Positions 5,379 through 38,203 of a DNA stretch of 64,000 bases are shown here, in pieces. The notes below the pieces were generated by a model, which saw only the letters and a list, made by a program, of their open reading frames with translations, searched no databases and was not told the origin of the DNA. Made by a program: the position numbers and the translations under genes. Position 1 is the first letter of the stretch. Every line of letters begins with the position of its first letter. Source of the DNA: Alphaproteobacteria bacterium UBA6376 (GTDB taxonomy: Bacteria; Pseudomonadota; Alphaproteobacteria; Rs-D84); assembly GCA_002437665.1 (NCBI GenBank), contig DJQW01000001.1, forward strand, positions 65,304 through 129,303, written 5' to 3'.

Positions 5379-7208
5379 ATGAATATTCGCAATATTGCAA
5401 TCATTGCACACGTTGACCACGGCAAAACGACCTTGGTCGACAATATGTTGAAACAGGCCGGCACATTCCGCGCCAATGAAAAGGTCGAAGATCGCGTCAT
5501 GGACAGTGGCGATATTGAACGCGAACGCGGTATTACTATTTCGGCAAAGCCAACCTCTATTTTGTGGCACGATTATAAAATCAATATCGTTGACACCCCA
5601 GGGCACGCGGACTTTGGCGGCGAAGTGGAACGTATTTTGTCCATGGTTGACGGTGTGGTTCTGTTGGTTGATGCAGCCGAAGGGCCCCTGCCCCAAACCA
5701 AATTCGTTTTGTCCAAGGCATTGAAACTGGGCCTGCGTCCAATCGTTTGCATCAACAAGGTTGATCGTTCTGATGCCCGCCCTGATGAAGTGCTGAGTGA
5801 AACATTTGACCTGTTTGATAAATTGGGCGCAACCGATGAACAGTTGGATTTCCCATATCTGTACGCCGTTGGTCGTGACGGTTGGGCGGTGCGCGATTTG
5901 AATGACCCGCACAAAGATTTGACCCCACTGTTTGAACTGATTGTAAATCATGTGCCCGCACCTGATTGCAATGGCACACGTTGCCAACTGGACGCGCCTT
6001 TTTCCATGTTGGCCACCACGTTGGAGGCCGATCCATACGTCGGTCGTATTTTGACCGGCAAAATTGAATCCGGTACTGTTCACGTTGGCCAAGCGGTCAA
6101 GGCAATCAATATGCAAGGCGAATTTGTCGAAAACGCCAAGATTACAAAAATCATTGAACACCGCGGTGTTGAAAAAATTTCACGCGACAGTGCGTCTGCG
6201 GGCGACATTGTCGTTGTTGCCGGTTTTTCCAAGGCAACCGTGGCGGACACCCTGTGTGATCCATCGGTTACAGAACCAATTCCCGCAATGCCGATTGACC
6301 CACCAACCCTGACCATGACATTCTTTGTGAACACATCGCCATTGGCCGGTAAATCGGGCAAGAAATTGACATCGCGCATGATTGGCGAACGCCTGTTCAA
6401 AGAAGCGGAAACAAACATCGCGTTAAAGGTCACACAAAGCGCGAACAATGAATCGTTTGAGGTTTCTGGTCGTGGTGAATTGCAGTTGGGTATTCTGATT
6501 GAAACAATGCGCCGCGAAGGATTTGAATTGTCTGTATCGCGTCCACGCGTTGTTATGCACGAAGGTGAAGACGGCGAAAAGTTAGAACCAATCGAAGAAG
6601 TTGTTATCGATGTTGATGATGAATTTTCTGGCGTCGTTATCGAAAAGATGACCAAGCGCAAGGCAACAATCACCGAAATGAAGGCGTCTGGTGCGGGCAA
6701 AACACGTATCGTATTTTCTGCACCATCACGTGGGCTGATTGGTTACCTGTCTGAATTTCGTACCGACACACGTGGCACGGGTATTATGAACCGCGTGTTT
6801 GATAAATATGGCCCATATCGTGGCCCGATTGTTCAGTATCGCCCAGGCGTGCTGGTATCAATGGAAAACGGTGTCACCGCGACATACGCCCTGTTCAACC
6901 TGCAACCACGTGGCACACTGTTTGTTGGCCCCCAGACCGAAGTTTATTCCGGTATGATTATCGGCGAACACAGCAAAGAAAATGATTTGGAGGTAAATCC
7001 AGTCAAGGGTAAAGAACTGACCAACGTCCGCAGCGTGACCGCTGATGAAAAACTGTTCTTGGCCCCACCGCGCAAGATGTCACTGGAAGAAGCCCTGTCT
7101 TATATTCAGGACGACGAATTGGTAGAGGTTACCCCCGCGACAATTCGTCTGCGCAAGAAAGAATTGGACAGCAACATTCGTAAAAAGACACGTAAAAACG
7201 TTGAATAA
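5379..7208 (+). CDS. typA: translational GTPase TypA/BipA
   Basis: AIIAHVDHGKTTLVD G1 motif, DTPGHADF, NKVDR. The length and C-terminus are typical of BipA. Confidence 0.95.
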   Translation: MNIRNIAIIAHVDHGKTTLVDNMLKQAGTFRANEKVEDRVMDSGDIERERGITISAKPTSILWHDYKINIVDTPGHADFGGEVERILSMVDGVVLLVDAAEGPLPQTKFVLSKALKLGLRPIVCINKVDRSDARPDEVLSETFDLFDKLGATDEQLDFPYLYAVGRDGWAVRDLNDPHKDLTPLFELIVNHVPAPDCNGTRCQLDAPFSMLATTLEADPYVGRILTGKIESGTVHVGQAVKAINMQGEFVENAKITKIIEHRGVEKISRDSASAGDIVVVAGFSKATVADTLCDPSVTEPIPAMPIDPPTLTMTFFVNTSPLAGKSGKKLTSRMIGERLFKEAETNIALKVTQSANNESFEVSGRGELQLGILIETMRREGFELSVSRPRVVMHEGEDGEKLEPIEEVVIDVDDEFSGVVIEKMTKRKATITEMKASGAGKTRIVFSAPSRGLIGYLSEFRTDTRGTGIMNRVFDKYGPYRGPIVQYRPGVLVSMENGVTATYALFNLQPRGTLFVGPQTEVYSGMIIGEHSKENDLEVNPVKGKELTNVRSVTADEKLFLAPPRKMSLEEALSYIQDDELVEVTPATIRLRKKELDSNIRKKTRKNVE

Positions 7209-7211
7209 AAA

Positions 7212-7236
7212 ATGCGCCATCTGGCGCATTTTTTTG
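7212..7236 (+). terminator. rho-independent terminator after typA
   Basis: atgcgccatctggcgcat hairpin plus a T-run. Confidence 0.65.
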
Positions 7237-7282
7237 ACTTTTATCCTGTTGTTGAAATTTCTATAAAAAATGTGTACATTAT

Positions 7283-8134
7283 ATGTATATGAAACGCAGA
7301 TTATTTCTTTTGGCGGGTTATAATGCCCACGGTTTAATTGATGAATCACTGATTTTTTATATTCAGGCATTGGCGGCATGCGGCGATGTTGTGCTGTGCA
7401 TGGATTCTGATTGCAGTGCCGCTGAATTACAGCGGGTTGCACCATACGTCTTGCACGCGACCGCGCAACGTCACGGCGAATACGATTTCGGTTCATACAA
7501 GCGTGCATACATGTATGCGGCGGACGCCGACATTTTGAAAAATTACGAATTTGTGTATATGGTAAATGATTCTGTGTATGGCCCACTGATGGACATAGAA
7601 CCATCGCTGCGCCGTATGGAAGCATTAAATCGCGACGCGTTTGGTCTGGTGTATAATCCAACGGCATCGCGTCCGCATATTCAGTCATGGTTTATTGGTA
7701 TGCGCAAAAATGTATTCTTGTCCCCATGGTACGACGAATTTATGCGCGCCATTACCCGTCAACCGGACAAAGGGTCAATCACATACCTGTACGAACAGGG
7801 ATTCACCGAAATGCTGCGCGCACACCGCGTAAAATTTGCATGTTTGTATAATTGCCCCGGACGCAGTGTGTATAACAATGTTGCTGCCCTGTTCCGTCGT
7901 GGTATGCCATTTATGAAAAAGGTTGCGTTCAGTCGCGCAGACGGCGCATTGGGAAATCGCATTTTGTATATCTTACGCAATACGTCGCCCGCGGTGCGCG
8001 ATATGATTTTGGCATCGGCACGCCGCACATGGGGCGACGAATATATCAAATGGTTACTGACACGCAACCCAATAAAAATCACATATCGTCATATCAAACA
8101 CGCTTTGCGCAAGATATTTATAGAGGGGCTGTAA
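7283..8134 (+). CDS. putative polysaccharide/LPS biosynthesis protein (glycosyltransferase-like, possibly of the rhamnan-synthesis-F type)
   Basis: Sits in the glycosyltransferase cluster. The motifs are only weakly recognisable. Confidence 0.4.
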   Translation: MYMKRRLFLLAGYNAHGLIDESLIFYIQALAACGDVVLCMDSDCSAAELQRVAPYVLHATAQRHGEYDFGSYKRAYMYAADADILKNYEFVYMVNDSVYGPLMDIEPSLRRMEALNRDAFGLVYNPTASRPHIQSWFIGMRKNVFLSPWYDEFMRAITRQPDKGSITYLYEQGFTEMLRAHRVKFACLYNCPGRSVYNNVAALFRRGMPFMKKVAFSRADGALGNRILYILRNTSPAVRDMILASARRTWGDEYIKWLLTRNPIKITYRHIKHALRKIFIEGL

Positions 8135-8986
8135 ATGAAAAAAACACAACCACAAAAATCAGACATTCGTATTGCCGCCGTGACAATGGCACGCAATGAT
8201 GAATTTTTCTTGAACCGCTGGATTAAATATTACGGCGGACAAATCGGGTCTGAAAACCTGTATATCTATCTGGACGGATTGGATCAAAAAATCCCATCAG
8301 GTCACGCGAACGCCAACATAACAAAATTACCGCATCGTGACGAAGAACGCCAACGCGGGGACAAGACGCGCATATTACTGTTATCTGATTTGGCGAAAAA
8401 ATTATTCGCCGATGGTTACGATATCGTCATCGGTTGCGATTGCGATGAATTTCTGGTTGTTGACCCTGACATCAAAACAACATTGCCACAGTATTTGTCC
8501 AAAATTAAAAATCGCATAACGGTGTCCGGATTGGGTCTGGACGTTGGAATGGATTTAGAATCCGAAAGTGCATTGGATATAAACGCGCCATTTTTGACCC
8601 AGCGTAAATATGCCGTTCTGTCCACCCGCTATACCAAACCGGTTGTTTTGTTCCGTCCCCGCACATGGGGCAGCGGTTTCCACAGTGTCAAAGGCACAAA
8701 TTTCCACATTGATAAAAATCTGTATCTGTTGCATTTTGGCGGCGTGGATTTGGACATGATAAAAAATAAAATCGGCGACCGCACTGCATCATGGGGCGCG
8801 CACCTGAAAAAGCGCGCGCGCACGATTGACATTATCACACGCGCCCAAAACAAGAATCATTCAATGCGCGCCGCACGCATATTGCAAACGTTCCTGCGCC
8901 CAATTTATGATTTGAACAAGCCCGCAATGCTGGGTCTGAAATGGGTTGCAACAATCCCATCGCGTTTTGTAAAAACAGGAATATAA
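8135..8986 (+). CDS. putative glycosyltransferase (GT-A fold)
   Basis: N-terminal AAVTMARNDEFFLNRWIKYY and an acidic IVIGCDCDEF motif. Start is adjacent to the stop of the previous gene. Confidence 0.5.
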   Translation: MKKTQPQKSDIRIAAVTMARNDEFFLNRWIKYYGGQIGSENLYIYLDGLDQKIPSGHANANITKLPHRDEERQRGDKTRILLLSDLAKKLFADGYDIVIGCDCDEFLVVDPDIKTTLPQYLSKIKNRITVSGLGLDVGMDLESESALDINAPFLTQRKYAVLSTRYTKPVVLFRPRTWGSGFHSVKGTNFHIDKNLYLLHFGGVDLDMIKNKIGDRTASWGAHLKKRARTIDIITRAQNKNHSMRAARILQTFLRPIYDLNKPAMLGLKWVATIPSRFVKTGI

Positions 8987-9110: not shown

Positions 9111-10260
9111 ATTTTATCACTTTCATTATCTGTTCTGTGATTTTGGTGGCGTCAAAGCGCGACAGATTTTCTGTGGCGACTGCTATCATTTTTTCTGTGT
9201 CCGCGCGACGCGTCCATGCGTCCATCATACGCAGCGCCAAATCCGTTGCGTCACCAGGCGCGAATAATAACCCAGCGCGTCCATCCATCAGAATCTCGCG
9301 CGGGCCATTACGACAATCCGACGCGATATTCAATGTGTTGGTGGCGGCGGCCTCTATCAATACGGTGGGCAGTCCCTCGGAATAACTAGACAATATATTC
9401 GCGCGCGCATGCGACATATACCCAAACGGATTACCCGCCGCCCCAACAAACTCTATATGACGCTGCGCCGGCAACGTACGCGCAATCTGTTCATATTCGC
9501 CGCGCATATCGCCATCGCCAACAAACACCATTTTAATATTTGGCCGCCCCGCGTTTTGCCAGAACATATCAAACCCACGCAGCACCGTTTCAATATCTTT
9601 TTCCCGCGTCATTCGCGCGACACATACGAAATAGTCACCCCGCATATATTTACCCGCCACCGCCAATTTGCGGGCACGCGCAATATCAATCGGGTTATAA
9701 ATCTGAATAATCTTGTCAGAATATTCGGGATACTTGGTACGCAATTCCGTTGCCGCGTCACGGGTCAGCATTACCAATTTATCATACATTGGCATGTACC
9801 GCATGCGGCCACCCGCATACAGCGCATCAATCGATGAATGCCACCACGTGATTTTTTTGCCACGAAATTTTTTTAATTCACGTGCGAATGAAAAATTATA
9901 GTAATCGATAAACACATCAACATCATCGAAACGATGCGATGACATCATCATATATTTACCAAATCGGTATATATCACGCGCCACGTGTTTTATAATTCGC
10001 CACAGGAAAAAGTGCGGCATCTGCGTTCCCAAAAACCGGCATGGGTACAATGCGGTCAATTTCACATCTGGATGCGCCGCAAACCAATCACGATATTGGG
10101 GAACACTGATATTCGTGTATGTTATCACACGAATGTCCACGTCCCCGCGCGCCAACAGCGCGTCAATCGTCTGAATCACCACGGATTCAACGCCACCAAC
10201 CTGCATATCACGCAGACATATCGCGATTGTTTTACGTTTCATTTTATGCAACACCCACAT
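9109..10260 (-). CDS. glycosyltransferase family 4 (GT-B fold)
   Basis: EX7E-type C-terminal motif SYSEGLPTVLIEAAA. Confidence 0.8.
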   Translation of the reverse strand: MWVLHKMKRKTIAICLRDMQVGGVESVVIQTIDALLARGDVDIRVITYTNISVPQYRDWFAAHPDVKLTALYPCRFLGTQMPHFFLWRIIKHVARDIYRFGKYMMMSSHRFDDVDVFIDYYNFSFARELKKFRGKKITWWHSSIDALYAGGRMRYMPMYDKLVMLTRDAATELRTKYPEYSDKIIQIYNPIDIARARKLAVAGKYMRGDYFVCVARMTREKDIETVLRGFDMFWQNAGRPNIKMVFVGDGDMRGEYEQIARTLPAQRHIEFVGAAGNPFGYMSHARANILSSYSEGLPTVLIEAAATNTLNIASDCRNGPREILMDGRAGLLFAPGDATDLALRMMDAWTRRADTEKMIAVATENLSRFDATKITEQIMKVIK

Positions 10261-27951: not shown

Positions 27952-29529
27952 ATGTTTATGAACAGATTTTTTGGCTTTTGTACGCTGGGATTGATTCTGG
28001 CGGGATGCAGTGGTGATTACACAAGTCGCGATTGGTCAACCGATTACGGCACGGACGTGGCTGGCGCACCATCACAGATGCAATACGGCGGATTTTCAGA
28101 CAACGCAACCGATAATCACCGCGTGGCGGTACTGTTACCATTGTCGGGCGAAAACGCGGCAACGGGCCGTGCAATCCGCACATCTATTGAAATCGCCACA
28201 CTGCAAAGCGCACCCCAGAGTATGTCTGTCGCATTCTATGACACCGCACGCGATGGCGCAATTTCAGAGGCATTGATGGAAAGTCCCGAAATCGTAATCG
28301 GGCCGGTCTTTGCGGGCGACGCGCGCATTGTTCGTGCAACAAAACCAATGGAAATGCCGGTCTTGTCATTTACATCGGACGCAACCGCATTGGGCGACGG
28401 CGTTATGACAATGAACCTGATGCCCACAAACAGTGTAGAGGCGATTGCCACCGAAATGTCAGCGGACGGCATCAAGAAATTTATTATCTTGGCCCCCGAT
28501 ACGGCGTCCGGTCGCCTGATGGCGGGCACGGCAAAGAATGCCGCATCAATTTATAATATGGATTTGATTGGCATATTCTATTACACATCCGGTAATTCTG
28601 ATTCAATCAAAGACGCAGCGGCCGCCGCATCTATGAACGCGGCACGCACCGCGGCAAACACACGCGCGCGCGAAATCTTGTCTGATATCTTGACACGCGA
28701 ACGCCTGACCGCGATTGAAAAATCATCATTGGAAATTCAACTGGAAAAGATATCAAAGTCCGACACACTGGGCACAATTCCATACGATGGTATTTTGTTC
28801 CTTGGGGGTGCGGCCGATACAACCAGTATCGCATCATTCTTGCGCTATTATGGTGTTGCAGCGCGCGATGCACGCATGTATGGCACGGCCATGTGGGACG
28901 GTTCAAACATTACATCTGATATAACAATGTCGGGCGCAAAATTCGCCGCATTGCCAGAAATGTCTGCAACATTCACAGATGTATATTCACGCGTTGCGGG
29001 TAACGCCCCATCGCACTTGGCGGCATTTGGTTACGACGCCGCAAATTTGGCCATGGGAATGATGTATTCACAGAAATCCAATGCGGCATACCTGCTTGAC
29101 CCCAGTGGTTATGTCGGCACAGACGGCCTGTTCCGTCTGATGCCAAATGGCGACAGCCAACGCGCATTGCGCATCATGCAATTAAACGGCACAGGCGATG
29201 CAACGGTTGTGCGCGCCGCACCACAAAACTTTATTCGTCCAATATATAATATTGAACAGCGTCACATCGCGCCTGCCGCCGCGATGGCATTGGAATCAGA
29301 CGGCATAAATCCAATGGATTATATTCGCATCCCAGAACGCCTGCGCGGCACATATAAATCAAAAACATTTGGTGCAAATATTACGCACCCTGCCGCGCCC
29401 GTACAGCAGGAAAATATAACCGTCCTGCCCGAAGATGACAGCGAACCCATCGCCGCCACGGATTACGAACCAGTAAAACTGGAATCCGTTGACCGCACGT
29501 ATATCGACAGTGTGGAAATATCAGAATAA
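27952..29529 (+). CDS. periplasmic-binding-protein-like lipoprotein (LpoA/LppC-like penicillin-binding protein activator family)
   Basis: Lipoprotein signal ..LAGCSG. VAVLLPLSGENAATGRAIRTSIEIA is typical of the type-1 periplasmic binding fold seen in LpoA. Confidence 0.5.
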   Translation: MFMNRFFGFCTLGLILAGCSGDYTSRDWSTDYGTDVAGAPSQMQYGGFSDNATDNHRVAVLLPLSGENAATGRAIRTSIEIATLQSAPQSMSVAFYDTARDGAISEALMESPEIVIGPVFAGDARIVRATKPMEMPVLSFTSDATALGDGVMTMNLMPTNSVEAIATEMSADGIKKFIILAPDTASGRLMAGTAKNAASIYNMDLIGIFYYTSGNSDSIKDAAAAASMNAARTAANTRAREILSDILTRERLTAIEKSSLEIQLEKISKSDTLGTIPYDGILFLGGAADTTSIASFLRYYGVAARDARMYGTAMWDGSNITSDITMSGAKFAALPEMSATFTDVYSRVAGNAPSHLAAFGYDAANLAMGMMYSQKSNAAYLLDPSGYVGTDGLFRLMPNGDSQRALRIMQLNGTGDATVVRAAPQNFIRPIYNIEQRHIAPAAAMALESDGINPMDYIRIPERLRGTYKSKTFGANITHPAAPVQQENITVLPEDDSEPIAATDYEPVKLESVDRTYIDSVEISE

Positions 29530-29533
29530 AATC

Positions 29534-29556
29534 GCCCGCCAAATGGCGGGTATTTT
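29534..29556 (+). terminator. rho-independent terminator after the LpoA-like gene
   Basis: cccgcc-aaat-ggcggg hairpin plus tatttt. It abuts the left direct repeat of the island. Confidence 0.55.
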
Positions 29557-29719
29557 AGTGGTGGGAGTGGCTGATTCCCTCGCCCACACGGGGGCGTGGG
29601 ACTGCGGGGCATTCGTATGTTGTGTTCCGCGGCGCACACACCGCGCCACACAACAACTCATAGTCGAACCGGCAATCAAATGATTGCGTGCTTCCAATTC
29701 AACACCACATATCACCAAA

Positions 29720-29752
29720 ATAAAAACACCCGCGCGTCGGGTGTTTTTATTT
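29720..29752. terminator. bidirectional terminator inside the island's left arm
   Basis: acacccgcgcgtcgggtgt hairpin flanked by A and T runs. Confidence 0.5.
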
Positions 29753-30341
29753 TGGTGGGGCGCACTTTACTCACGATATTCAGACATACAAAATCTCCTA
29801 CCAAGAATTACCCCAGAACAGGGATTATCAGGGAATTTTTATAAAAAACGTCATATAAAGGCCCAACTAATACAACTTATGGTTGTATTACACCCACAAA
29901 AACCAACAAAATTTCCAAAAATTCCCTATACAACAAAACAGGGAATTATTTTCTTAATATCAGGGATATCTTTTGTCATTTTCCTATATTAACAGACCTA
30001 CCTGAACACATAAACTTTAAGGACGCTTTATAAGAAGGGAAGTGAAGCATTTTTCATGGCTGTGCCACGAGTAAACTTTCATTTTCCCTTATATATAGAG
30101 GTCCCTAAAAAATTTTAGGACCGATAAAAAACTTATAAGGAGTGTTTTATGAACAACTTAAACATACAAAACATAGAAATCGCCCGGATACGAGAATACT
30201 AAAACAACCCAAATTCGCATACCTCTAGTTCGCCTAGGATATTTTTACACTAAAAACATCTTTTTTTATTATCTACACAACTCATGCACCTTGGGTTTTA
30301 ATTTCCGCAAAACATTACATCTCATTAAAAATGATACATTT

Positions 30342-33300
30342 TCATTTTAAAGACGCTATAAATCTTTTCAACTTCATTACTTCTTTATCTTTTTCTTCAA
30401 ACCAATTCGTTGACCAGATTCTATAAAACTCAAACCCAAAATGATTTTCTATCCATTTTTGCCTATGCATATCTGCTGCATATGCCTGATCTGTATTATG
30501 ATATGCCTTCCCATCGCACTCTAAAGCTACTTTATGACCGTTTACTTCTAACATAAAATCAAGTCTATACCCACCAACAGGATATTGTAAATGTATGTGT
30601 TTTTTATCTATAAATTTAAGTAATTCATTATATACTTCTTCTTCAAAAACAGATTCAGTAAGTCCCTCCATTGTTGGTTGCGACGAATCTTCAACAATCG
30701 TTGTTGTGCCACTTCTCCGTATATCGTAGCTATACTTACACAATTGACTTAATATATCTTCCACAGTTGCTTTATCACCATCAGAAACGGCTTTTGCATA
30801 TGCAATATAAGCATAAAATATGGCTGCCCTATTATTTTCATGCGACCTGTCTAACAGTTCCTTGTATGTTGAATATGCCTTTTTTGGAATGGACGTTACA
30901 ACATACAGTTTACTTTTTGCTCTTGTTATCAAAACATTTAACAATTTGTATCCATTATCTGTCAATATAGATCCAAAACGTTGATAAAACTTTCCTGATT
31001 CATCTGGCCCAAATGTAGTAGATATTATAATGATATCCTTTTCATCGCCCTGAATATTTTCTAGATTTTTAACAAAAAGCCCCGCTTGTTGCAATTTTTC
31101 AAATCTATCTTTAAAAGCTTCATCTTTATATGATGTTTCATATAACAATGTTTTTATACAATTTCTCTGATGTATATTAAATGTTGCTATTCCAACAGAT
31201 GGCATTGTGCCATCCGAATTCGGTTTTATTTCATTAAGGATAGAAATAACCTCTACTGCTTCTTTTGGATTAATGTTGCTTGCTTTTCCGGAACTATAAA
31301 TACCACTTACTTCTCTTATTTCTATTGGGTTATAATCTTTTCCAACGACTGGCAAAGGACACAAATTACCACCATAAAATGCAGCATTAGAAAAGTTGAT
31401 TAAAGCAGGATGCTTTGAACGATAATGAAAATCTAAATATGACATATTTTTATATTTTAAATTTTCTGCAAATACCAACAAGGATTCTGCATCAAGTTGT
31501 GCATTTACAAGCATATTTCCGTCTGTATTACCACCATTATTCCCGTCTAAACCAGTTTGGAAATAATTAGAAGGCGGCATTTGGTGTTGATCTCCAGCAA
31601 TTATTTTATACTTTCCTCTTATCATTGCCGTATAAACATCTTCTATTCTTAATTGACTGGCTTCGTCAAAAATAACCAAATCAAAAGACCCCTGCTCCAA
31701 TTTAAACAATGTATTAGCTACAATTGGATTTACTAAAATAACAGGGAAAATTGTCGTAAAAGAAGCAAAATCTTTATCAATAATCTGTTTTAGAGATAAC
31801 CTTTTCCCAAATTTTTGATTTTTCTTTAATGCAAATAATGCTTTAAAACCATATTTGTCATCTAACCTTGTCATTGCATTTTGTATTCTTTCGTCCCACA
31901 TACTAAATGTACGCTTCAAATTCTGCTTTTCTAAATCACTATAAATACTCTTTAACAAATTCAAATTCGTGTCGTTTTTATGAAATCTTATCTTTGTTTT
32001 TGATTCAAAATCCAACAACATATAATAATAATATGAAGCAAGAAATGTATTTTCCCAATTATCAACATTGACTGTTTCTAAGATGTCCATCAAGCTTCGA
32101 TTGGCTTTTTCAAACTTTACCCATGTGTTATAATCTTCAATTTTATCCATATTGTCTTTCAAATCAAACAAAGATGACAACACGTTATTAAACATTAATT
32201 TACACTCTTTAATATCAGAAAAATGTTGTAAATCGTCATTAATTAACGGGAACTGTTTAACAATATCGTGCTTTAAAGAATCTATACGATTTTTACAATC
32301 AATTATATTTTTATACTCATTTTTATGCTCCGCAAACGTCAAATTGCATTCAACTAACGCCTTATATGCTCCATCTAAATTTTTATATATTTTGCTTTGC
32401 TGAGACCTTACTTTTTTCTCTAAAATAGACATATCTTTTAATAACGTTTTTAAATCGATGTATTCTTTCCATTTTCCTAATTTGTTATCCAGTTCTTGAT
32501 ATTTGTTATATTGAGAAACATTTGACTGCACAGAAGCCAACAACCGTTTGATGGTTATTAAAATATCATATGCCTCAGAAACATTCTTAGAAAACAATCT
32601 ATTAAATATACCAAATTTCCCTATATCAAAATTCTCTCCCAACAAATCATTACCTTGCTTATATTTTTCCTTTATCAAGGTAATATTGTCTAAAATATTA
32701 CTTAAAAGTTGTGTTTTTTCAACAGCCGTATCATCAAAATCTATTTCAACATCAAGAGATTCTGCCTTTTCATTAAATGCACTAAATAATACATTTAAAG
32801 CTTCTATCTCATTTGGCGTTAATTCATTTTTATATAACTTTTTTATATCCTTATAAATTGGCTCTATTGACTCAAGATACGCTATCTTTTCTTCAATACA
32901 CTCTTTATTAGAAACTATTGATACGTCATTACATTCAAAATTAGATTTTTTCACATATGCATCGAACTCTTCTATAAAAGATATCGAATCGTTTAATTTT
33001 TTCTCTATTTCCTTCTTTTGCTTTATGTTTATCACATCCGCGAAATCATCAAAATCTATATATTTAAAATACGAACTATTCGTATCTTTTATATAGGAAA
33101 ACAGTAATGCTCCCTTTTTGATAATATTTAAATATTCATTTAAAGCATCTTCAGTAAACGTAAACTTAAAGTTTCCAAAATCATTCTTAGTTGATTCAAA
33201 TTCTGGATTTTTAGAAAATCTCAAATACTCACCGACTAAATCTTTCCAATTTTTCCCAGCAAAAATAGGCTTACTAGACTCTTTATACGATGCGTTAACA

Positions 33301-34631
33301 GAATCTCTAAGCTCTATAAATTGGTTATATTTTTGTTCAAAAACCCCTTCATCAAAGCCATACAAATTATGAGAATAACCATCCCCATCATATATTCTAC
33401 GTGCCTTTTCAACAATGCTTTTTCTGTCTTTTACAACATCGTCTATTACTGCACAAAAACAATCTAATTTTTTAGATTCTAAATTTTTTACAAGAACATC
33501 CAATGCTGTTTTCTTCTCGCAAACAACCAATGTCTTTGCGCCATTCGCCAACGCATTTGAAATAATTGCAGAAATAGCCTGAGATTTACCAGTTCCCGGA
33601 GGCCCTTGAATAATTTTGAACTCATCAGAATTTAATGTATCTATTATTTCTCTTTGGCTTGGGTCAACTTCAAAAGAGGTAGTTGTGCTAGTCTGAAATG
33701 GCTCAATAGTCAATTCTTCTGAATTAAATTTATCTACATTTTCTAATAATTCTCTTGTTGCTTCGATTATAGGCTCCTTTTGCGACCTAAACAATCCAAA
33801 CACACCGCTCCACTGAACCCAAGCGGTTCCACTAGTTATTTTTTCTACCTTCTCTTTATTTTCTGGACACTTTTGTAAAGAAATATTAGTTATGTCTTCT
33901 TTGATTCCTAAACCTTTATTAAGGTTATTAACATAAGCTATTATCTCATCTTCAGACAAAACCCCGTCATCCAATTCATCATTTGTTAATTTTGGTAATA
34001 CTACTTTTTCATCATTTTCTATATGCGATACCAATAATTCATTAACTTTGATAGGACTATCTTCCGTTTTTGATATAAACCACTCATTTCTTCTGTTTGA
34101 TTTTTCTATATCCAAAGACCATATAAATATTGGAGCTATGATTATTTTTTTAGGGTCTTTCTTATCCGGCTTTACTAACAGAGGATATCCAAAACCAAAA
34201 TTCTTTAAACCTGTTTCCAGATACATGTCTTCGTTATCTGCGACGATATTGTCTAACTTTCTAGAAACGTCAAACAATTTGCTCTTTTCATCTTCTGACA
34301 TTTTAGTCTGGGATTTTTCATCCCACGATATAGAAAATTTAAATTTCGGTTTTGTCAAAAGGCTTTCCAAAAAACTACCAGCAAGAGTGCTACTTTTGTT
34401 TTCTTCACCAACAGACAAATCAAACAAATCCAATCTTGTATGATTTCTACCAGGTATAGCATTAAGATGGATTGACCTACCATTTCCAACAGTTAACTTA
34501 CTAAGAAGTTTTTCTAAAAAAAACTTGTCAAATTTAATTTGTGATACAATACTCGCGCCTACCTTTTTGACATTTCTCTTTGGTGTATCAACATATTCTC
34601 TATTTGAAGGTTTTAAAAAAGTAAACGCCAT
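30342..34631 (-). CDS. DUF4011-like / Upf1-like SF1 helicase (AAA_11+AAA_12) / C-terminal DUF559 (Vsr-like PD-(D/E)XK) endonuclease fusion protein
   Basis: 1429 aa. Walker A IIQGPPGTGKSQAIS; motif II VIFDEASQL; motif III IIAGDQHQMPP; motifs V and VI QGDEKDIIIIST and LLNVLITRAKSKLYVV. C-terminus GYRLDFMLEVNGHKVALECDGKAYH (DUF559-like). N-terminal LKNFGFGYPLLVKP...IIAPIFIWSLDIEKS resembles DUF4011. Very AT-rich. Confidence 0.85.
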   Translation of the reverse strand: MAFTFLKPSNREYVDTPKRNVKKVGASIVSQIKFDKFFLEKLLSKLTVGNGRSIHLNAIPGRNHTRLDLFDLSVGEENKSSTLAGSFLESLLTKPKFKFSISWDEKSQTKMSEDEKSKLFDVSRKLDNIVADNEDMYLETGLKNFGFGYPLLVKPDKKDPKKIIIAPIFIWSLDIEKSNRRNEWFISKTEDSPIKVNELLVSHIENDEKVVLPKLTNDELDDGVLSEDEIIAYVNNLNKGLGIKEDITNISLQKCPENKEKVEKITSGTAWVQWSGVFGLFRSQKEPIIEATRELLENVDKFNSEELTIEPFQTSTTTSFEVDPSQREIIDTLNSDEFKIIQGPPGTGKSQAISAIISNALANGAKTLVVCEKKTALDVLVKNLESKKLDCFCAVIDDVVKDRKSIVEKARRIYDGDGYSHNLYGFDEGVFEQKYNQFIELRDSVNASYKESSKPIFAGKNWKDLVGEYLRFSKNPEFESTKNDFGNFKFTFTEDALNEYLNIIKKGALLFSYIKDTNSSYFKYIDFDDFADVINIKQKKEIEKKLNDSISFIEEFDAYVKKSNFECNDVSIVSNKECIEEKIAYLESIEPIYKDIKKLYKNELTPNEIEALNVLFSAFNEKAESLDVEIDFDDTAVEKTQLLSNILDNITLIKEKYKQGNDLLGENFDIGKFGIFNRLFSKNVSEAYDILITIKRLLASVQSNVSQYNKYQELDNKLGKWKEYIDLKTLLKDMSILEKKVRSQQSKIYKNLDGAYKALVECNLTFAEHKNEYKNIIDCKNRIDSLKHDIVKQFPLINDDLQHFSDIKECKLMFNNVLSSLFDLKDNMDKIEDYNTWVKFEKANRSLMDILETVNVDNWENTFLASYYYYMLLDFESKTKIRFHKNDTNLNLLKSIYSDLEKQNLKRTFSMWDERIQNAMTRLDDKYGFKALFALKKNQKFGKRLSLKQIIDKDFASFTTIFPVILVNPIVANTLFKLEQGSFDLVIFDEASQLRIEDVYTAMIRGKYKIIAGDQHQMPPSNYFQTGLDGNNGGNTDGNMLVNAQLDAESLLVFAENLKYKNMSYLDFHYRSKHPALINFSNAAFYGGNLCPLPVVGKDYNPIEIREVSGIYSSGKASNINPKEAVEVISILNEIKPNSDGTMPSVGIATFNIHQRNCIKTLLYETSYKDEAFKDRFEKLQQAGLFVKNLENIQGDEKDIIIISTTFGPDESGKFYQRFGSILTDNGYKLLNVLITRAKSKLYVVTSIPKKAYSTYKELLDRSHENNRAAIFYAYIAYAKAVSDGDKATVEDILSQLCKYSYDIRRSGTTTIVEDSSQPTMEGLTESVFEEEVYNELLKFIDKKHIHLQYPVGGYRLDFMLEVNGHKVALECDGKAYHNTDQAYAADMHRQKWIENHFGFEFYRIWSTNWFEEKDKEVMKLKRFIASLK

Positions 34632-34775
34632 TGATGTTTCTCGCTCTATTTTGCGATGTGAATGGTATCATATATACATACAAATCTCAATATTTTTATA
34701 TTATATACCGTCTTTATTAACTTGACTTCTTGCTTCTTTAGAGCGGTAATTGGACGACATTACAAAGGAGTACAT

Positions 34776-35219
34776 ATGTCAAGTTTCACAAAACTGCCGC
34801 AGAGTTTGGTAGAGTTAAAACGCCTGCCATTTGCTGACCGACAGCGATTATGGGCAAAATACTCGCCCCACCCATTTCGCCGGCAAAATACAGCACTGTG
34901 GTATTACATGCAATGCGACCGATTAAAACTGCGAATATTGCCAAAACATATGGTAAAAATTCGCAAATATATGAACAATCCTGACGCTTGTTTAACCCAT
35001 GTTTATCGTAATAAATATAACCTGGGGTCTGGCACGATCATTACCAAAATATTTCGTGGAAAACAACATATCATAACGGTCGGCGACAATAATGTATTCG
35101 CGTATAACGGGAAATCATACCACAGTTTATCCGGCATAGCACGCGAAATTACCGGAATTAAAATATCTGGTCCAGACTTCTTTGGACTAACCCCAGGGAA
35201 TAAAAATGTCAATCAATAA
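34776..35219 (+). CDS. DUF2924 family protein (recombinase-associated)
   Basis: C-terminus LGSGTIITKIFRGKQHIITVGDNNVFAYNGKSYHSLSGIAREITGIKISGPDFFGL matches the DUF2924 hallmark (SLSAIA..ITGT.WNGP.FFGL). aaaggag RBS. Its stop overlaps the recombinase start by 14 nt. Confidence 0.75.
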   Translation: MSSFTKLPQSLVELKRLPFADRQRLWAKYSPHPFRRQNTALWYYMQCDRLKLRILPKHMVKIRKYMNNPDACLTHVYRNKYNLGSGTIITKIFRGKQHIITVGDNNVFAYNGKSYHSLSGIAREITGIKISGPDFFGLTPGNKNVNQ

Positions 35220-36795
35220 GTGCGCGATTTATGTTAGAAAATCCACAGAACACGGGTTAGACATGGAATTTAACTCCCTGCAAAACCAGGAAGAATCATG
35301 CCTGGCATATATCGCGTCACAATCATTTAACGGATGGAAATACTGCAAAACATATACCGATGCGGCGATATCTGGCGGAACCATGGAACGGCCCGCATTA
35401 AAACAAATGCTGGACGATATGGCACACGGTTTAATAAACACGGTTGTTGTGTACAAGGTTGATCGCCTGTCGCGTTCAATTCTGGATTTTCACAACATGA
35501 TGAAATATTTTGAAAAATATGGCGTAAATTTCGTGTCCATCACCCAGTCATTTGATACTTCCAATTCTATGGGGAAATTGACATTAAATATGTTGCTATC
35601 ATTCGCACAATTTGAACGCGAAGTGGCCGGTGAACGCGTACGAGACAAGATACGAGCCAGCAAAGCCAAAGGAATCTGGGTCGGCGGAAATCCACGCCTG
35701 GGATACGATATCATAAATAAAAAATTGGTTGTAAATAAAACTGAAGCAGGCACAGTAAAATTACTGTTTAACAAATACTTGGAACTGCAATCTGTCACCC
35801 TATTAAAGAAATTTGCGAACTCCAATAATATTCACAACAAACAGTGGACAACCAAAACTGGAAAGATCCGTGGCGGTCGACCATTTCAAAATCAAACCTT
35901 GTTAAACCTGTTGCACGATAAAATCTATATTGGAATTATGGAGTGTAAATCAGCAAAAACATCAGCACCAGGCGAACATACCGCCATTATCGCAACGGAA
36001 TTATTTAACCGCGTTCAAGCGGCACTGCGCAACAACACAAATGGCAAGATTGGGAATTCACACAACGCCCCCAACCTGCTGACCGGAAAATTATTTAATG
36101 ATGATGGCATAAAATTCACAAACCAACAGACGCGACAACAGAATAAACAAACCAAATATTATTATGCAATCCCTGGTTTATATATTCAGTCATCCCCAGT
36201 GGACGAAATTGTTATAAATATCATTGATGAATTTATGAATGCCAATCTGGAACGAATCCACAGCGATTTTGGCAACGCATTAAAACACATAGATTTTTCA
36301 AATTTACCATTTCCGACCAAGCGCGATTTTATCAGACGAATCTTACAAAAAGTCATTTATTCCGAAAACAGGCTGACGCTGTTTATTGACCAAAATGCAG
36401 ATATAAAGGAATTCATAAACACAGAATTTACAAACGAAAATCAAAACAAAATGGATTACGTCATTGGCGACAAAAGTATAATAGTAAGACGCGAATTCAT
36501 CATGCAACGATATAACAAACGAAATGATTATAACGCTGGGAAATCCGCCGCAATCAGCATAAGCGATAACAATCATCTGGTTGTGCGGGCATTTGCACGC
36601 GCATTTAAATATCGCAAAATGTATGAAGAATGCGGTGATTATAAATCAATCGCCAAAATGGAAAACACATCAGAAAGCAGTGTTTATCGTCACCTGAAAC
36701 TGGCCTATATGCACCCGGACACCGTCAATGCAATTATGTCCGGCACCATGCAATGCAGTGTGGATAAGTTATTCAATATTCAAAACAATCTATAA
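35206..36795 (+). CDS. large serine recombinase (resolvase/invertase N-terminal domain + recombinase domain)
   Basis: AIYVRKSTEHG... catalytic Ser context, ...VYKVDRLSRS..., FEREVAGERVRDK. 529 aa, a length typical of large serine recombinases. Confidence 0.9.
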   Translation: MSINKCAIYVRKSTEHGLDMEFNSLQNQEESCLAYIASQSFNGWKYCKTYTDAAISGGTMERPALKQMLDDMAHGLINTVVVYKVDRLSRSILDFHNMMKYFEKYGVNFVSITQSFDTSNSMGKLTLNMLLSFAQFEREVAGERVRDKIRASKAKGIWVGGNPRLGYDIINKKLVVNKTEAGTVKLLFNKYLELQSVTLLKKFANSNNIHNKQWTTKTGKIRGGRPFQNQTLLNLLHDKIYIGIMECKSAKTSAPGEHTAIIATELFNRVQAALRNNTNGKIGNSHNAPNLLTGKLFNDDGIKFTNQQTRQQNKQTKYYYAIPGLYIQSSPVDEIVINIIDEFMNANLERIHSDFGNALKHIDFSNLPFPTKRDFIRRILQKVIYSENRLTLFIDQNADIKEFINTEFTNENQNKMDYVIGDKSIIVRREFIMQRYNKRNDYNAGKSAAISISDNNHLVVRAFARAFKYRKMYEECGDYKSIAKMENTSESSVYRHLKLAYMHPDTVNAIMSGTMQCSVDKLFNIQNNL

Positions 36796-36906
36796 CAGAA
36801 TCTCCAGTTCCCGAAATGCCGATTGTATGTATATCGGTATTTTTGGGCTATTTCGCCATACATACAAAATATGTGCAGGCCGCACAATCGCCCAAATTCG
36901 GGCAAT

Positions 36907-36938
36907 AAAAACACCGACCACAACGGGTCGGTATTTTC
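36907..36938. terminator. terminator after the recombinase gene, abutting the tRNA-Tyr 3' end
   Basis: accgaccacaacgggtcggt hairpin plus atttt. Confidence 0.55.
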
Positions 36939-37025
36939 TGGTGGGAGTGGCTGGATTCGAACCAGCTCAGGCTTAAGCCAACAGATTTACAGTCTGCCCC
37001 GGCTCTCCAACTCCGGCGCACGCCC
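36939..37025 (-). tRNA. tRNA-Tyr (GTA), 87 nt with long variable arm; slightly non-canonical
   Basis: Minus-strand read: GGGCGTG-CG-CCGG-AGTTGGAGAG-CCGG-G-GCAGA-CTGTAAA-TCTGT-TGGCTTAAGCCTGA-GCTGG-TTCGAAT-CCAGC-CACTCCC-A-CCA. Anticodon GTA. One C:U mismatch in the acceptor stem and no U8. Confidence 0.6.
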
Positions 37026-37105
37026 AATCTCTGTTTGTCCGGCTTCGTTATTCTACGCCGCGACAATGAATTTTCAGCCCTTGCTTTCGCTGTGGTGAAA
37101 ATTCT

Positions 37106-37180
37106 TGGTGCGGGCAGCGGGAATCGAACCCGCATTTCAAGCTTGGAAGGCTTGCATACTAGCCTTTGTACTATGCCCGC
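37106..37180 (-). tRNA. tRNA-Gly (TCC)
   Basis: Minus-strand read: GCGGGCA-TA-...-CAAGC-CTTCCAA-GCTTG-AAAT-GCGGG-TTCGATT-CCCGC-TGCCCGC-A-CCA. Anticodon TCC. Confidence 0.85.
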
Positions 37181-37231
37181 AACAAATTAAAGCGTGCCTA
37201 TTATAAATCATATTTCAAAAAACGCAAGTGT

Positions 37232-38203
37232 TTATTCTGGCACGCCATTTGGCGGTGTGATGTCGGCCGCCCCCGTTTCGTACACGGTTTGAAACACCGG
37301 CGCACCAGCCGCCGATGCATCGCCCCCTGGGTGCGGCAACGCATGTGCACGATACATATTTAACAAGAAATAATACCAACTGTTCGGTTGCTTTTTTGCA
37401 AACTCGCTGCGCCGATGAATTTTGTATATGAAGCATGTGCGCGACAAATACCGCCACGCGTCCATATCAGCGGCGCGCCCCAAGAAGTACGAAAAATACT
37501 TTACATTACTGTTCAGATATGGAATCTGGCTGAACCAAATACGGTGACACCACGGGTGATATGTAAACAACACCGTCACAAACCAATGAAAGAAAAAGTA
37601 ATCAATCGCCCTGCGTTCGTGACGCCAATACTCTTCCAGAAAAACACGTATACAACGTATGAAATAGTTGTTCGGTGCGGCGTGAATAAAGAAATTAGAT
37701 ACATCTTTCTTGTTCGGATTTTGCAATATGAAAAACGTCTGTTTCATAATAAAGTTCGGTATTTTGTCCATCATCAGACACGACGCATCAATCCACGTGC
37801 CACCATACATGTCCAACAATGCCACCCGCACATAGTCCGAAAAATGTGCAGGTTCAATAATTCCGCGACGATATTTATCCATAATATGCGCCGGAATATC
37901 CAAATACTGTGACACATTTTTCTCAGTAATAATTACCGCTTGCGGGTAAAAGCAAAATATAGAATTCAATCCCATTTGAATAAAATCTGGACGTTCATCT
38001 TGCAGCCACATTGTCCACACGCGGTTGACCGGCGGAACCGTCAAATTGCACTTTGGAATTTGATGTTGCGGCATACCCTGCACCATTTTAGTGACATACA
38101 AATACCGACGCAGGTAATCCTTGGTTGCCGATTTTTTCCCACAAAAAATTTTGCGTATATAAAAGCGTACCCAACGATACCAGTTTTCAAATATTCTGAA
38201 CAT
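37232..38203 (-). CDS. glycosyltransferase with DXD sugar-binding region (paralog of 11285..12211)
   Basis: VWTMWLQDERPDF...HFSDYVRVALLDMYGGTWIDAS parallels IWTLWLQGEDKAPE...HFADICRVELLYEHGGIWLDST. Confidence 0.55.
   Translation of the reverse strand: MFRIFENWYRWVRFYIRKIFCGKKSATKDYLRRYLYVTKMVQGMPQHQIPKCNLTVPPVNRVWTMWLQDERPDFIQMGLNSIFCFYPQAVIITEKNVSQYLDIPAHIMDKYRRGIIEPAHFSDYVRVALLDMYGGTWIDASCLMMDKIPNFIMKQTFFILQNPNKKDVSNFFIHAAPNNYFIRCIRVFLEEYWRHERRAIDYFFFHWFVTVLFTYHPWCHRIWFSQIPYLNSNVKYFSYFLGRAADMDAWRYLSRTCFIYKIHRRSEFAKKQPNSWYYFLLNMYRAHALPHPGGDASAAGAPVFQTVYETGAADITPPNGVPE

Follow-up and report, generated by a model that had tools for sequence, protein, structure and literature searches.

DUF2924 and an atypical large serine recombinase as the conserved gene pair of tRNA-targeted islands in gut Alphaproteobacteria

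What does a DUF2924 protein contribute to the recombinase whose gene it precedes? The question is raised by a 64,000-nt stretch of the genome of Alphaproteobacteria bacterium UBA6376 (contig DJQW01000001.1; hereafter the window, within which all coordinates are positions), where a DUF2924 gene overlaps the gene of a large serine recombinase beside a tRNA gene. A preliminary description of this DNA had noted that DUF2924 genes recur just upstream of large serine recombinases and that their role is unknown. Our adjacency survey found the same arrangement in 81/82 gut alphaproteobacterial loci, in IMG/VR viral contigs, in the Acidithiobacillus phage AcaML1, on an Agarilytica plasmid and in an Eleftheria replicon, and a literature search returned no paper assigning DUF2924 a function or tying it to the directionality factors of serine integrases. 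As shown here by sequence comparison, the gene pair belongs to a recombinase-based island that inserts in tRNA 3' ends, regenerates them and carries replaceable cargo. Based on sequence and predicted structure, we tentatively propose, at somewhat under an even chance, that DUF2924 is a DNA-binding accessory or directionality factor of this recombinase clade.

A tRNA-Tyr island with replaceable cargo

The island (29574-36953, 7,380 bp) is of low GC, falling from ~50% in the flanks to 27-43% between the repeats, and lies within the 3' end of tRNA-Tyr(GTA) (Rfam tRNA, 39.3 bits; Table 1), which faces the recombinase gene across 143 bp. The last 15 nt of the tRNA, TGGTGGGAGTGGCTG, form a core whose exact copies at 29559-29573 and 36939-36953 are spaced 7,380 bp apart; around the attL core, looser similarity with indels extends over 29551-29578 (direct repeat, 18/20 matches). 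The repeat reported earlier as attachment (att) sites at 29551-29578 and 36932-36959 is real, with an exact core of 15 bp, and the placement of the gene pair next to attR is borne out by the tRNA-Tyr, the core repeat and the empty sites. To find the latter, public metagenome contigs were queried with the junction predicted for an uninterrupted site (GGCGGGTATTTTAG, TGGTGGGAGTGGCTG and GATTCGAACC in succession). This junction is intact in two related contigs, L102 and L103 (attB: ...CCGCCATTCGGCGGGTATTTTAG TGGTGGGAGTGGCTG GATTCGAACCAGCTCAGG...), which share 86-92% identity with the window flanks and in which the tRNA-Tyr 3' end runs directly into the chromosomal terminator. The comparison of occupied and empty sites places the crossover within or at the edge of the 15-bp core. 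By the same comparison, the hairpin left of attL is the native sequence downstream of tRNA-Tyr, now split from its tRNA by the island, which is seen to supply a replacement tRNA 3' end and terminator. The L102 lineage has a major facilitator superfamily gene and a DUF488 gene between this terminator and an lpoA-like gene, which explains the different left neighbour of the sister strain L001.

Table 1. Features of the island and its borders in the window.
Feature	Position	Strand	Description and evidence
Chromosomal bidirectional terminator hairpin	29534..29551		Terminator-like on both strands; homologous hairpin directly after tRNA-Tyr in L102 and L103
attL core, displaced copy of the last 15 nt of tRNA-Tyr	29559..29573		Direct repeat; exact 15-mer; also in L001
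Island left arm (P' side of attP)	29574..29973		~400 bp, non-coding; begins ATTCCC, then hairpin
Cargo helicase-nuclease	30342..34631	-	1429 aa; DUF4011, SF1 helicase AAA_11/AAA_12, C-terminal MTES_1575 restriction-endonuclease-like (Pfam)
DUF2924 gene	34776..35219	+	147 aa; predicted helical N-part (~10-75) and beta-rich RAMA-like C-part (~85-138); Pfam, PHROGs, homologue alignment, AlphaFold
Atypical large serine recombinase	35206..36795	+	529 aa; catalytic, recombinase, ribbon-like and C-terminal helix-turn-helix domains
Island right arm (P side of attP)	36796..36938		Inverted repeat; terminator hairpin 36913-36932 abutting the tRNA end
tRNA-Tyr(GTA)	36939..37025	-	attR core = its last 15 nt, 36939-36953; ARAGORN, Rfam, empty sites

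An intact tRNA, a displaced fragment and a recombinase gene between them make up the Islander signature, here with a serine-family integrase in place of the tyrosine-family integrase that the Islander definition assumes. The sister locus L001 has the same tRNA/displaced-fragment structure. It is ~97% identical to the window across the shared module and right flank, and its left arm (L001 831-1268) is 93% identical over 440 bp, although the adjoining cargo is entirely different (L001 1285-9873 compared with window 29974-34710). Islands of the tRNA-Ser type begin with the related GTCTGATTCCC and a hairpin. One such locus, L040, holds a junction of right arm, 19-bp tRNA-Ser core and left arm (10076-10190), and L035 carries a stray tRNA-Ser 3' fragment (~8200-8560); these sequences indicate tandem or successive islands at one tRNA. 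Judged from sequence, site-specific integration is supported by the occupied and empty sites, the cargo-swapped sister island and the tandem-island junction. An Rfam search of 29400-37300 at E ≤ 1 returned two tRNAs only, and an exact search of IMG/VR for the reconstructed attP junction gave no match. As a side observation, L035, L025, L037 and L077 have a second, unrelated arm type beside tRNA-Ser.

Three genes make up the island: the cargo, DUF2924 and the recombinase. The cargo gene (GC 27-35% against ~50% in the flanks) matches the PADLOC models PDC-S37 (E = 1.6e-133, residues 320-1427) and Hhe (E = 7e-70), and falls below the cut-offs of the NCBIfam models ProA (429 bits, cut-off 1500, E = 4e-128) and Hhe (284 bits, cut-off 2000, E = 2e-84). 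By sequence, it is related to PDC-S37, Hhe and ProA, which are candidate anti-phage proteins, but lies outside the named equivalogs. In L001, the same arms and module enclose a DpnII-type restriction-modification system, AIPR, a KAP NTPase, and an OLD-TOPRIM ATPase with a UvrD helicase that looks like Gabija. The L001 recombinase gene appears N-terminally truncated.

The gene pair across related loci

The DUF2924 open reading frame (ORF) could open as early as 34662; since 67 homologues of 140-150 aa begin at a Met equivalent to the ATG at 34776, the latter is the right start. The protein (C-terminus ...KSYHSLSGIAREITGIKISGPDFFGLTPGNKNVNQ / ...SLSGIAREITGIKISGPDFFGLTPGNKNVNQ) scores 63.5 bits against Pfam PF11149 (gathering cut-off 31.2, E = 3.3e-17), aligning residues 39-138 to model positions 37-134 of 135, so that its earlier assignment to DUF2924 passes a hidden Markov model (HMM) search; in PHROGs it matches phrog_11806 (function unknown, E = 8e-18). 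The recombinase ORF (MSINKCAIYVRKSTE...VDRLSRS) shares 14 nt with it (35206-35219), as had been described, and matches Resolvase PF00239 (E = 1e-39), Recombinase PF07508 (E = 1.7e-10) and phrog_95 integrase (E = 7e-90).

A locus scan covering one genome per species returned 80 further loci, giving 82 (L001-L082). Most of the 80 come from Alphaproteobacteria of gut and rumen that are uncultured, many of them under the label Candidatus Enterousia, and several copies occur in some genomes. The recombinase follows DUF2924 on the same strand in 81/82 loci (the exception is cut by a contig end), and the recurrence of the same pair in the same order argues that the pairing is not due to chance. Among 78 scorable loci, the genes overlap by 11 nt in 30, by 14 nt in 19 and by 55 nt in 3, whereas 268-3260 bp of unrelated, mostly antisense ORFs lie between them in 24. 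The translational coupling read from the overlap is therefore plausible in the window, as it is in the 52/78 loci with overlapping genes, but it is not a conserved requirement, because antisense cargo parts the genes elsewhere. Wherever the contig is long enough, a tRNA faces the 3' end of the recombinase gene (Ser in 41 loci, with three anticodons; Tyr in 7, Pro in 4 and Gln in 2), across a gap of 140-1450 bp that holds variable cargo.

DUF2924 and the recombinase are the sole conserved genes of these islands, and the cargo around them is replaceable and much of it defence-like. We also looked for a third conserved gene, for instance one for a directionality factor, in the gap between DUF2924 and recombinase and in that between recombinase and tRNA; only unrelated, mostly antisense cargo ORFs are present in either. 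About 12 recombinase genes are split or truncated, from which we conclude that some island copies are decaying. Side observations concern single junctions. In L069, a 398-aa cargo ORF between the two genes (6441-7921, minus strand) resembles, by eye, a class I aminoacyl-tRNA synthetase of the TyrRS/TrpRS type (HLGH and MMSKS motifs). In L027 (5931-7995, from a metagenome-assembled genome), a 1-nt shorter A-run at the overlap fuses DUF2924 and recombinase in frame, and its sister L039 has a normal overlap and a broken recombinase. We considered the fusion as proof of interaction and set it aside, as it could reflect decay or a sequencing or assembly error.

The two proteins diverge together (r = 0.72). 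Mean identity is 0.59 for DUF2924, 0.62, 0.53 and 0.49 for the recombinase DNA-binding domains and 0.89 for the catalytic domain; DUF2924 thus evolves at the pace of the DNA-binding domains and not of the catalytic domain. These figures bear on the idea that DUF2924 is a targeting subunit, needed for integration, which recognises the tRNA site or part of attB/attP and delivers the recombinase there. Its identity is indeed lower between elements at different tRNAs (0.525) than between those sharing a target (0.62), its domain is of a DNA-binding type, and the recombinase is devoid of the usual zinc-binding residues. However, the recombinase domains drop equally or more (recombinase domain from 0.65 to 0.52, ribbon from 0.56 to 0.44, C-terminal domain from 0.53 to 0.38), the enzyme already has three putative DNA-binding domains, and distant DUF2924-recombinase pairs reside on plasmids with no tRNA nearby. 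We regard a targeting subunit as very unlikely.

Architecture of the two proteins and the right arm

The recombinase comprises a catalytic domain (residues 1-160, with R11 and S13), a recombinase domain (~167-277), a ribbon-like domain (~286-395) and a helix-turn-helix (HTH) domain (~456-523). R11, S13, D86 and R87 are invariant in 40 homologues, and the catalytic domain aligns to TP901-1 integrase (E = 2e-28). Pfam PF07508 covers residues 179-277, and residues 163-325 align to the A118 integrase fragment 4kis. The best Foldseek matches of the AlphaFold model are large serine recombinase synaptic complexes (9dxh, E = 6e-15), 4kis (A118), Bxb1 and PhiC31. With its Recombinase domain, ribbon-like third domain and these structure matches, the enzyme is of the large type that the preliminary description took it to be, and not a small resolvase.

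It is, however, an atypical large serine recombinase. The zinc-ribbon HMM (Zn_ribbon_recom, PF13408) finds no match in it even at E ≤ 10, residues 286-395 contain zero cysteines, and none is conserved after C32 in the 40 homologues; a zinc ribbon with four cysteine ligands is absent, although a ribbon-like beta-hairpin region is still predicted at 296-328. After the ribbon hairpins and before the closing strands (380-395), the model has only short helices (329-344, 354-359 and 369-379), and no long coiled coil is predicted. The third domain has ~110 residues, about the size of the third domain of A118 integrase (4KIS) minus its coiled coil. The C-terminal helical domain gives weak HTH matches and aligns to AcaML1 gp2 (E = 1e-07) through the motif ...YRHLKLAYMHPDTVNAIMSG. 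In AcaML1, the order is gp4 (DUF2924, 27% identity), gp3 ("recombinase large subunit") and gp2 (HTH "small subunit"); as the C-terminal domain aligns to the separate gp2, the ancestral module seems to have had three genes, the last two of which are fused in the window. The zinc-ribbon cysteines are retained in AcaML1 gp3 (Pfam, 29.3 bits) and in L100, which suggests that cysteine loss is the derived state.

In the AlphaFold model of DUF2924 (predicted local distance difference test (pLDDT) 78.6), the N-terminal part is helical and the C-terminal part is beta-rich, with a helix after it. When 1.84 billion representative proteins were searched with a profile, 6,151 relatives were recovered at E ≤ 0.001, mostly of ~150 aa. 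Large proteins also contain the C-terminal half by itself, in many cases as repeats; in these, Pfam RAMA (PF18755) matches the same residues (44.9 bits in P0245 and 77 bits in P0306, cut-off 35.2) and the partner domains include GIY-YIG/DUF4357 and phage Mu F-like head proteins. The sole structurally sensible Foldseek matches are the RAMA domain of MPND (7ydt and 7ydw, free and DNA-bound) and CcrM, and the group that defined RAMA reported that it partly matches DUF2924 (PMC11342252). The profile found nothing below E 0.9 among PDB sequences, and the whole protein gave no Foldseek match at E ≤ 0.001 in PDB and BFVD. Comparison with solved directionality factors detected no sequence or fold similarity, and Pfam found no HTH_17 domain. 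The C-terminal half of DUF2924 is probably a RAMA-type DNA-binding module, as judged from sequence relatives and the model; the N-terminal half is taken to be the family-specific part.

RAMA domains occur in association with CcrM and other adenine methylases. In this connection, GATTC (GANTC) was seen at the inner edge of the core in both attL and attR (29569-29575 and 36953-36958), one copy lying in the T-loop region of the tRNA and a look-alike, CTGATTCCC, at the left end of the island. By analogy, a link of the att sites to methylation state is conceivable.

The architecture of the right arm is conserved in 55 distinct sequences, with or without cargo between recombinase gene and arm. Within the island, the 140-190 bp next to the tRNA hold one or two hairpins with T-runs that fit termination of the tRNA transcript. 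Farther in lies an inverted repeat, GTATnnn...nnnATAC, which spans 49-51 bp (e.g. L008 9103-9153 and L062 6351-6400) or, in the subgroup of the window, 41 bp (TTGTATGTA at 36823-36831 and TACATACAA at 36859-36867). It keeps its position 70-90 bp from the tRNA end and crossover across Tyr-, Ser-, Pro- and Gln-targeting islands, and has no match in Rfam. Three variable positions per arm co-vary within loci, with 110/144 matches against 69.3 +/- 5.1 in shuffled data (0/10,000 shuffles reached this value), a figure that overstates independence because the sequences are related. With its 41-51 bp, the repeat is as long as a serine-integrase att site, which led us to consider it for the crossover; since integrated islands keep it intact and the empty sites place the crossover in the 15-bp core, it does not have that role. 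We retain it as a candidate accessory site that either DUF2924 or the extra HTH domain may bind.

A third exact TTGTATGTA lies at 34675-34683 (minus strand), ~100 nt upstream of the DUF2924 start, where it was examined as a conserved operator. A locus-specific motif occurs there in just 4/52 loci, and the copy is probably due to chance. An operator would have fitted a DUF2924 that regulates transcription of the recombinase operon or of neighbouring cargo and takes no part in recombination, a role we consider improbable. DUF2924 is small, has a probable DNA-binding domain, is the first gene of the operon and stays beside the cargo slot in all loci; many integrase genes are, moreover, preceded by small regulators. 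Against such a role, the right-arm repeat is the sole conserved non-coding motif found and is as rare upstream of DUF2924 as stated, L001 and the window share no more than 65 bp of sequence upstream of the gene, and a promoter scan was uninformative (33 sites, 33.1 expected). Nor does regulation require that DUF2924 diverge together with the DNA-binding domains of the recombinase.

Distant relatives, known systems and the proposed role of DUF2924

The order DUF2924-then-recombinase is kept at 26-38% identity in AcaML1 and, in the plasmid collection, on the Agarilytica plasmid and the Eleftheria replicon. Among IMG/VR viral contigs, 12/14 loci have both genes; the remaining two are sections of a single contig and have one gene each. 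The linkage is strong and not absolute, since a Sphingopyxis plasmid has a DUF2924 gene whose downstream neighbour encodes a protein without a recombinase domain. On a Ralstonia megaplasmid, the DUF2924 gene has downstream of it a regulator annotated as LacI-family, like that following the Agarilytica recombinase, and the stretch between is unannotated, with stop codons in the expected frame. No tRNA gene was found near the distant annotated modules within the 7-10 kb stretches examined. By eye, a terminase large subunit-like gene directly precedes the pair in three IMG/VR contigs (L088 6685-9847, L096 6751-9927 and L099 286-1771), two of which also carry a ParB-domain DNA methyltransferase ahead of the pair. 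The relatives suggest that some carriers of the pair are prophages or satellites and not bare islands.

DUF2924 could then have a job unrelated to recombination (phage or satellite DNA handling, packaging or anti-defence) and merely travel with the recombinase. Its place directly after the terminase-like gene in those three contigs, the fusion of RAMA/DUF2924 C-terminal modules to Phage_Mu_F head proteins and GIY-YIG nucleases, and the plasmid copy without an adjoining recombinase are in keeping with this. Yet minimal islands devoid of any phage gene, in which all other genes are replaceable, retain an intact DUF2924 whose length is constant, and its order with respect to the recombinase, like its orientation, is the same in Alpha-, Beta- and Gammaproteobacteria and Acidithiobacillia. 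An unrelated job thus seems to us a poor explanation, with little chance of being right.

The reading that we prefer, an accessory or directionality factor, starts from the enzyme. In canonical large serine integrases, a coiled coil sets direction; because this clade is without a long predicted coiled coil, DUF2924 most likely helps with direction or assembly. As the sequence comparison shows, the recombinase cuts and rejoins within or at the edge of the 15-bp core common to island and tRNA. The C-terminal RAMA-type domain of DUF2924, we propose, would bind island DNA near the att site, for which the right-arm inverted repeat is the obvious candidate, an alternative binder of that repeat being the extra HTH domain of the recombinase itself. 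The N-terminal helical domain may contact the recombinase or dimerise. DUF2924 would thereby help decide or enable direction (excision or integration), or help assemble the synaptic complex, the role that Xis or a recombination directionality factor plays elsewhere. In phage lambda, xis lies immediately upstream of int and overlaps it, the same gene position that DUF2924 has relative to the recombinase. Within this reading, a true directionality factor is rather unlikely taken by itself; the remainder falls to a cofactor needed in both directions.

Several points weigh against this proposal. AcaML1 encodes a separate HTH_17 "excisionase" besides DUF2924; if that protein is the true directionality factor, DUF2924 has another task in this phage. 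A factor that ought to be missing while the island integrates sits uneasily with constant co-expression from overlapping genes; in lambda, an internal promoter overcomes this difficulty for xis and int, and DUF2924 and the recombinase gene are separated in the 24 loci described above. To our knowledge, known directionality factors of serine integrases bind the integrase and not DNA. The recombinase may be the only protein to bind the inverted repeat, or the repeat could work as an RNA stem. The absence of a coiled coil is read from a recombinase model of moderate confidence (pLDDT 71). As for the RAMA assignment, PF18755 does not match the DUF2924 of the window itself even at E ≤ 10, and the fold matches are weak (E ~0.9, template modelling score 0.26-0.40, with MPND RAMA at 0.40).

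A more specific version gives the arm repeat the central part: DUF2924 (through RAMA), the recombinase HTH or both would bind it and build a higher-order complex beside the crossover, a new form of direction control. Such a complex would be nearer to the res site of resolvases or the arms of the lambda intasome than to the simple sites of PhiC31 and Bxb1. We hold this version to be unlikely. The res sites of Tn3/gamma-delta, Sin and beta offer a resemblance only, in that an HTH-bearing serine recombinase is associated with an inverted repeat tens of bp from the crossover; here the repeat is on one arm only, and the enzyme has recombinase and ribbon domains that resolvases do not have.

Phage large serine integrases and their partners (PhiC31 Int/gp3, Bxb1 Int/gp47, A118 Int/gp44 and SPbeta SprA/SprB) share with the window the catalytic, recombinase and ribbon-like domains and site-specific integration with a small partner gene; in SPbeta, this gene likewise lies just upstream of the integrase gene. 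By contrast, the enzyme of the window carries an additional HTH at its C-terminus and has neither zinc-ligand cysteines nor a long predicted coiled coil, its RAMA-type partner resembles no solved directionality factor, and integration is at the 3' end of a tRNA with an identity block of 15 bp, as opposed to a 2-bp overlap in a simple site. AcaML1 gp4-gp3-gp2 has the same three parts in the same order and, like the island, uses the 3' end of a small stable RNA gene, as it is reported to integrate in ssrA with a 10-bp repeat (PMC3826726). It differs in that gp3 keeps its zinc ribbon, the HTH is a separate gene and the element is a 59-kb functional prophage with an HTH_17 "excisionase". In the Wolbachia phage WO, a DUF2924 gene is annotated beside a large serine recombinase (PMC10299305, PMC11376236), a proximity noted in three papers on Wolbachia; these prophages, compared by annotation alone, are ~65 kb long and not reported at tRNA genes.

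Lambda-type xis-int tRNA islands resemble the window in having a small DNA-binding gene directly upstream of the integrase gene and overlapping it, a regenerated tRNA 3' end, one arm with repeats like protein sites, and the signature of a tRNA with a displaced fragment (PMC4383910). They use a tyrosine recombinase, whereas the window enzyme is a serine recombinase, a class that, according to the 2015 Islander paper, was not known to target tRNA genes (PMC4383910). In Dehalococcoides, small cargo islands at ssrA combine a conserved integration module (DsiB/DsiA) with variable cargo (PMC3146451), and a minority of tycheposons carry a large serine recombinase at a tRNA (bioRxiv 10.1101/2020.12.28.424599). 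The Dehalococcoides partner is a second, small serine recombinase, DsiA, in place of DUF2924, which neither of the two papers mentions.

Already known are thus the adjacency of DUF2924 and serine recombinase genes, from annotations and in passing from the Wolbachia literature, and serine recombinases at ssrA and, rarely, at tRNA genes. As far as we found, a cysteine-free recombinase with a fused HTH and no long predicted coiled coil, its invariably linked RAMA-type partner, the co-varying arm repeat, and the systematic targeting of tRNA genes by a family of minimal islands with swappable cargo are undescribed. Large serine integrases are prized in genome engineering for their short sites and for needing one partner protein to reverse, a logic based on the coiled coil. 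A sizeable natural clade appears to do without both the coiled coil and the zinc ligands while keeping a RAMA-type protein and an extra HTH. The minimal island has two conserved genes and two arms, its attL and attR are defined, and an empty attB has been sequenced, so that it offers a compact system for studying DUF2924 function. Should DUF2924 prove to be a directionality or assembly factor, a domain family of thousands would gain a function, and new orthogonal integrase/partner pairs would be possible. Should the arm complex prove real, DUF2924 would be the founding member of DNA-binding directionality or architectural factors for serine integrases, and the clade would represent widespread serine integrases targeting tRNA and transfer-messenger RNA genes. 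The islands also appear to shuttle defence genes among poorly known, small-genome gut Alphaproteobacteria.

Outside the island, a 323-aa gene just past tRNA-Gly (37232-38203, minus strand) matches an L001 gene called Caps_synth (PF05704). It lies in a local GC dip (0.39 at 37500-37999) and may be another acquired gene.

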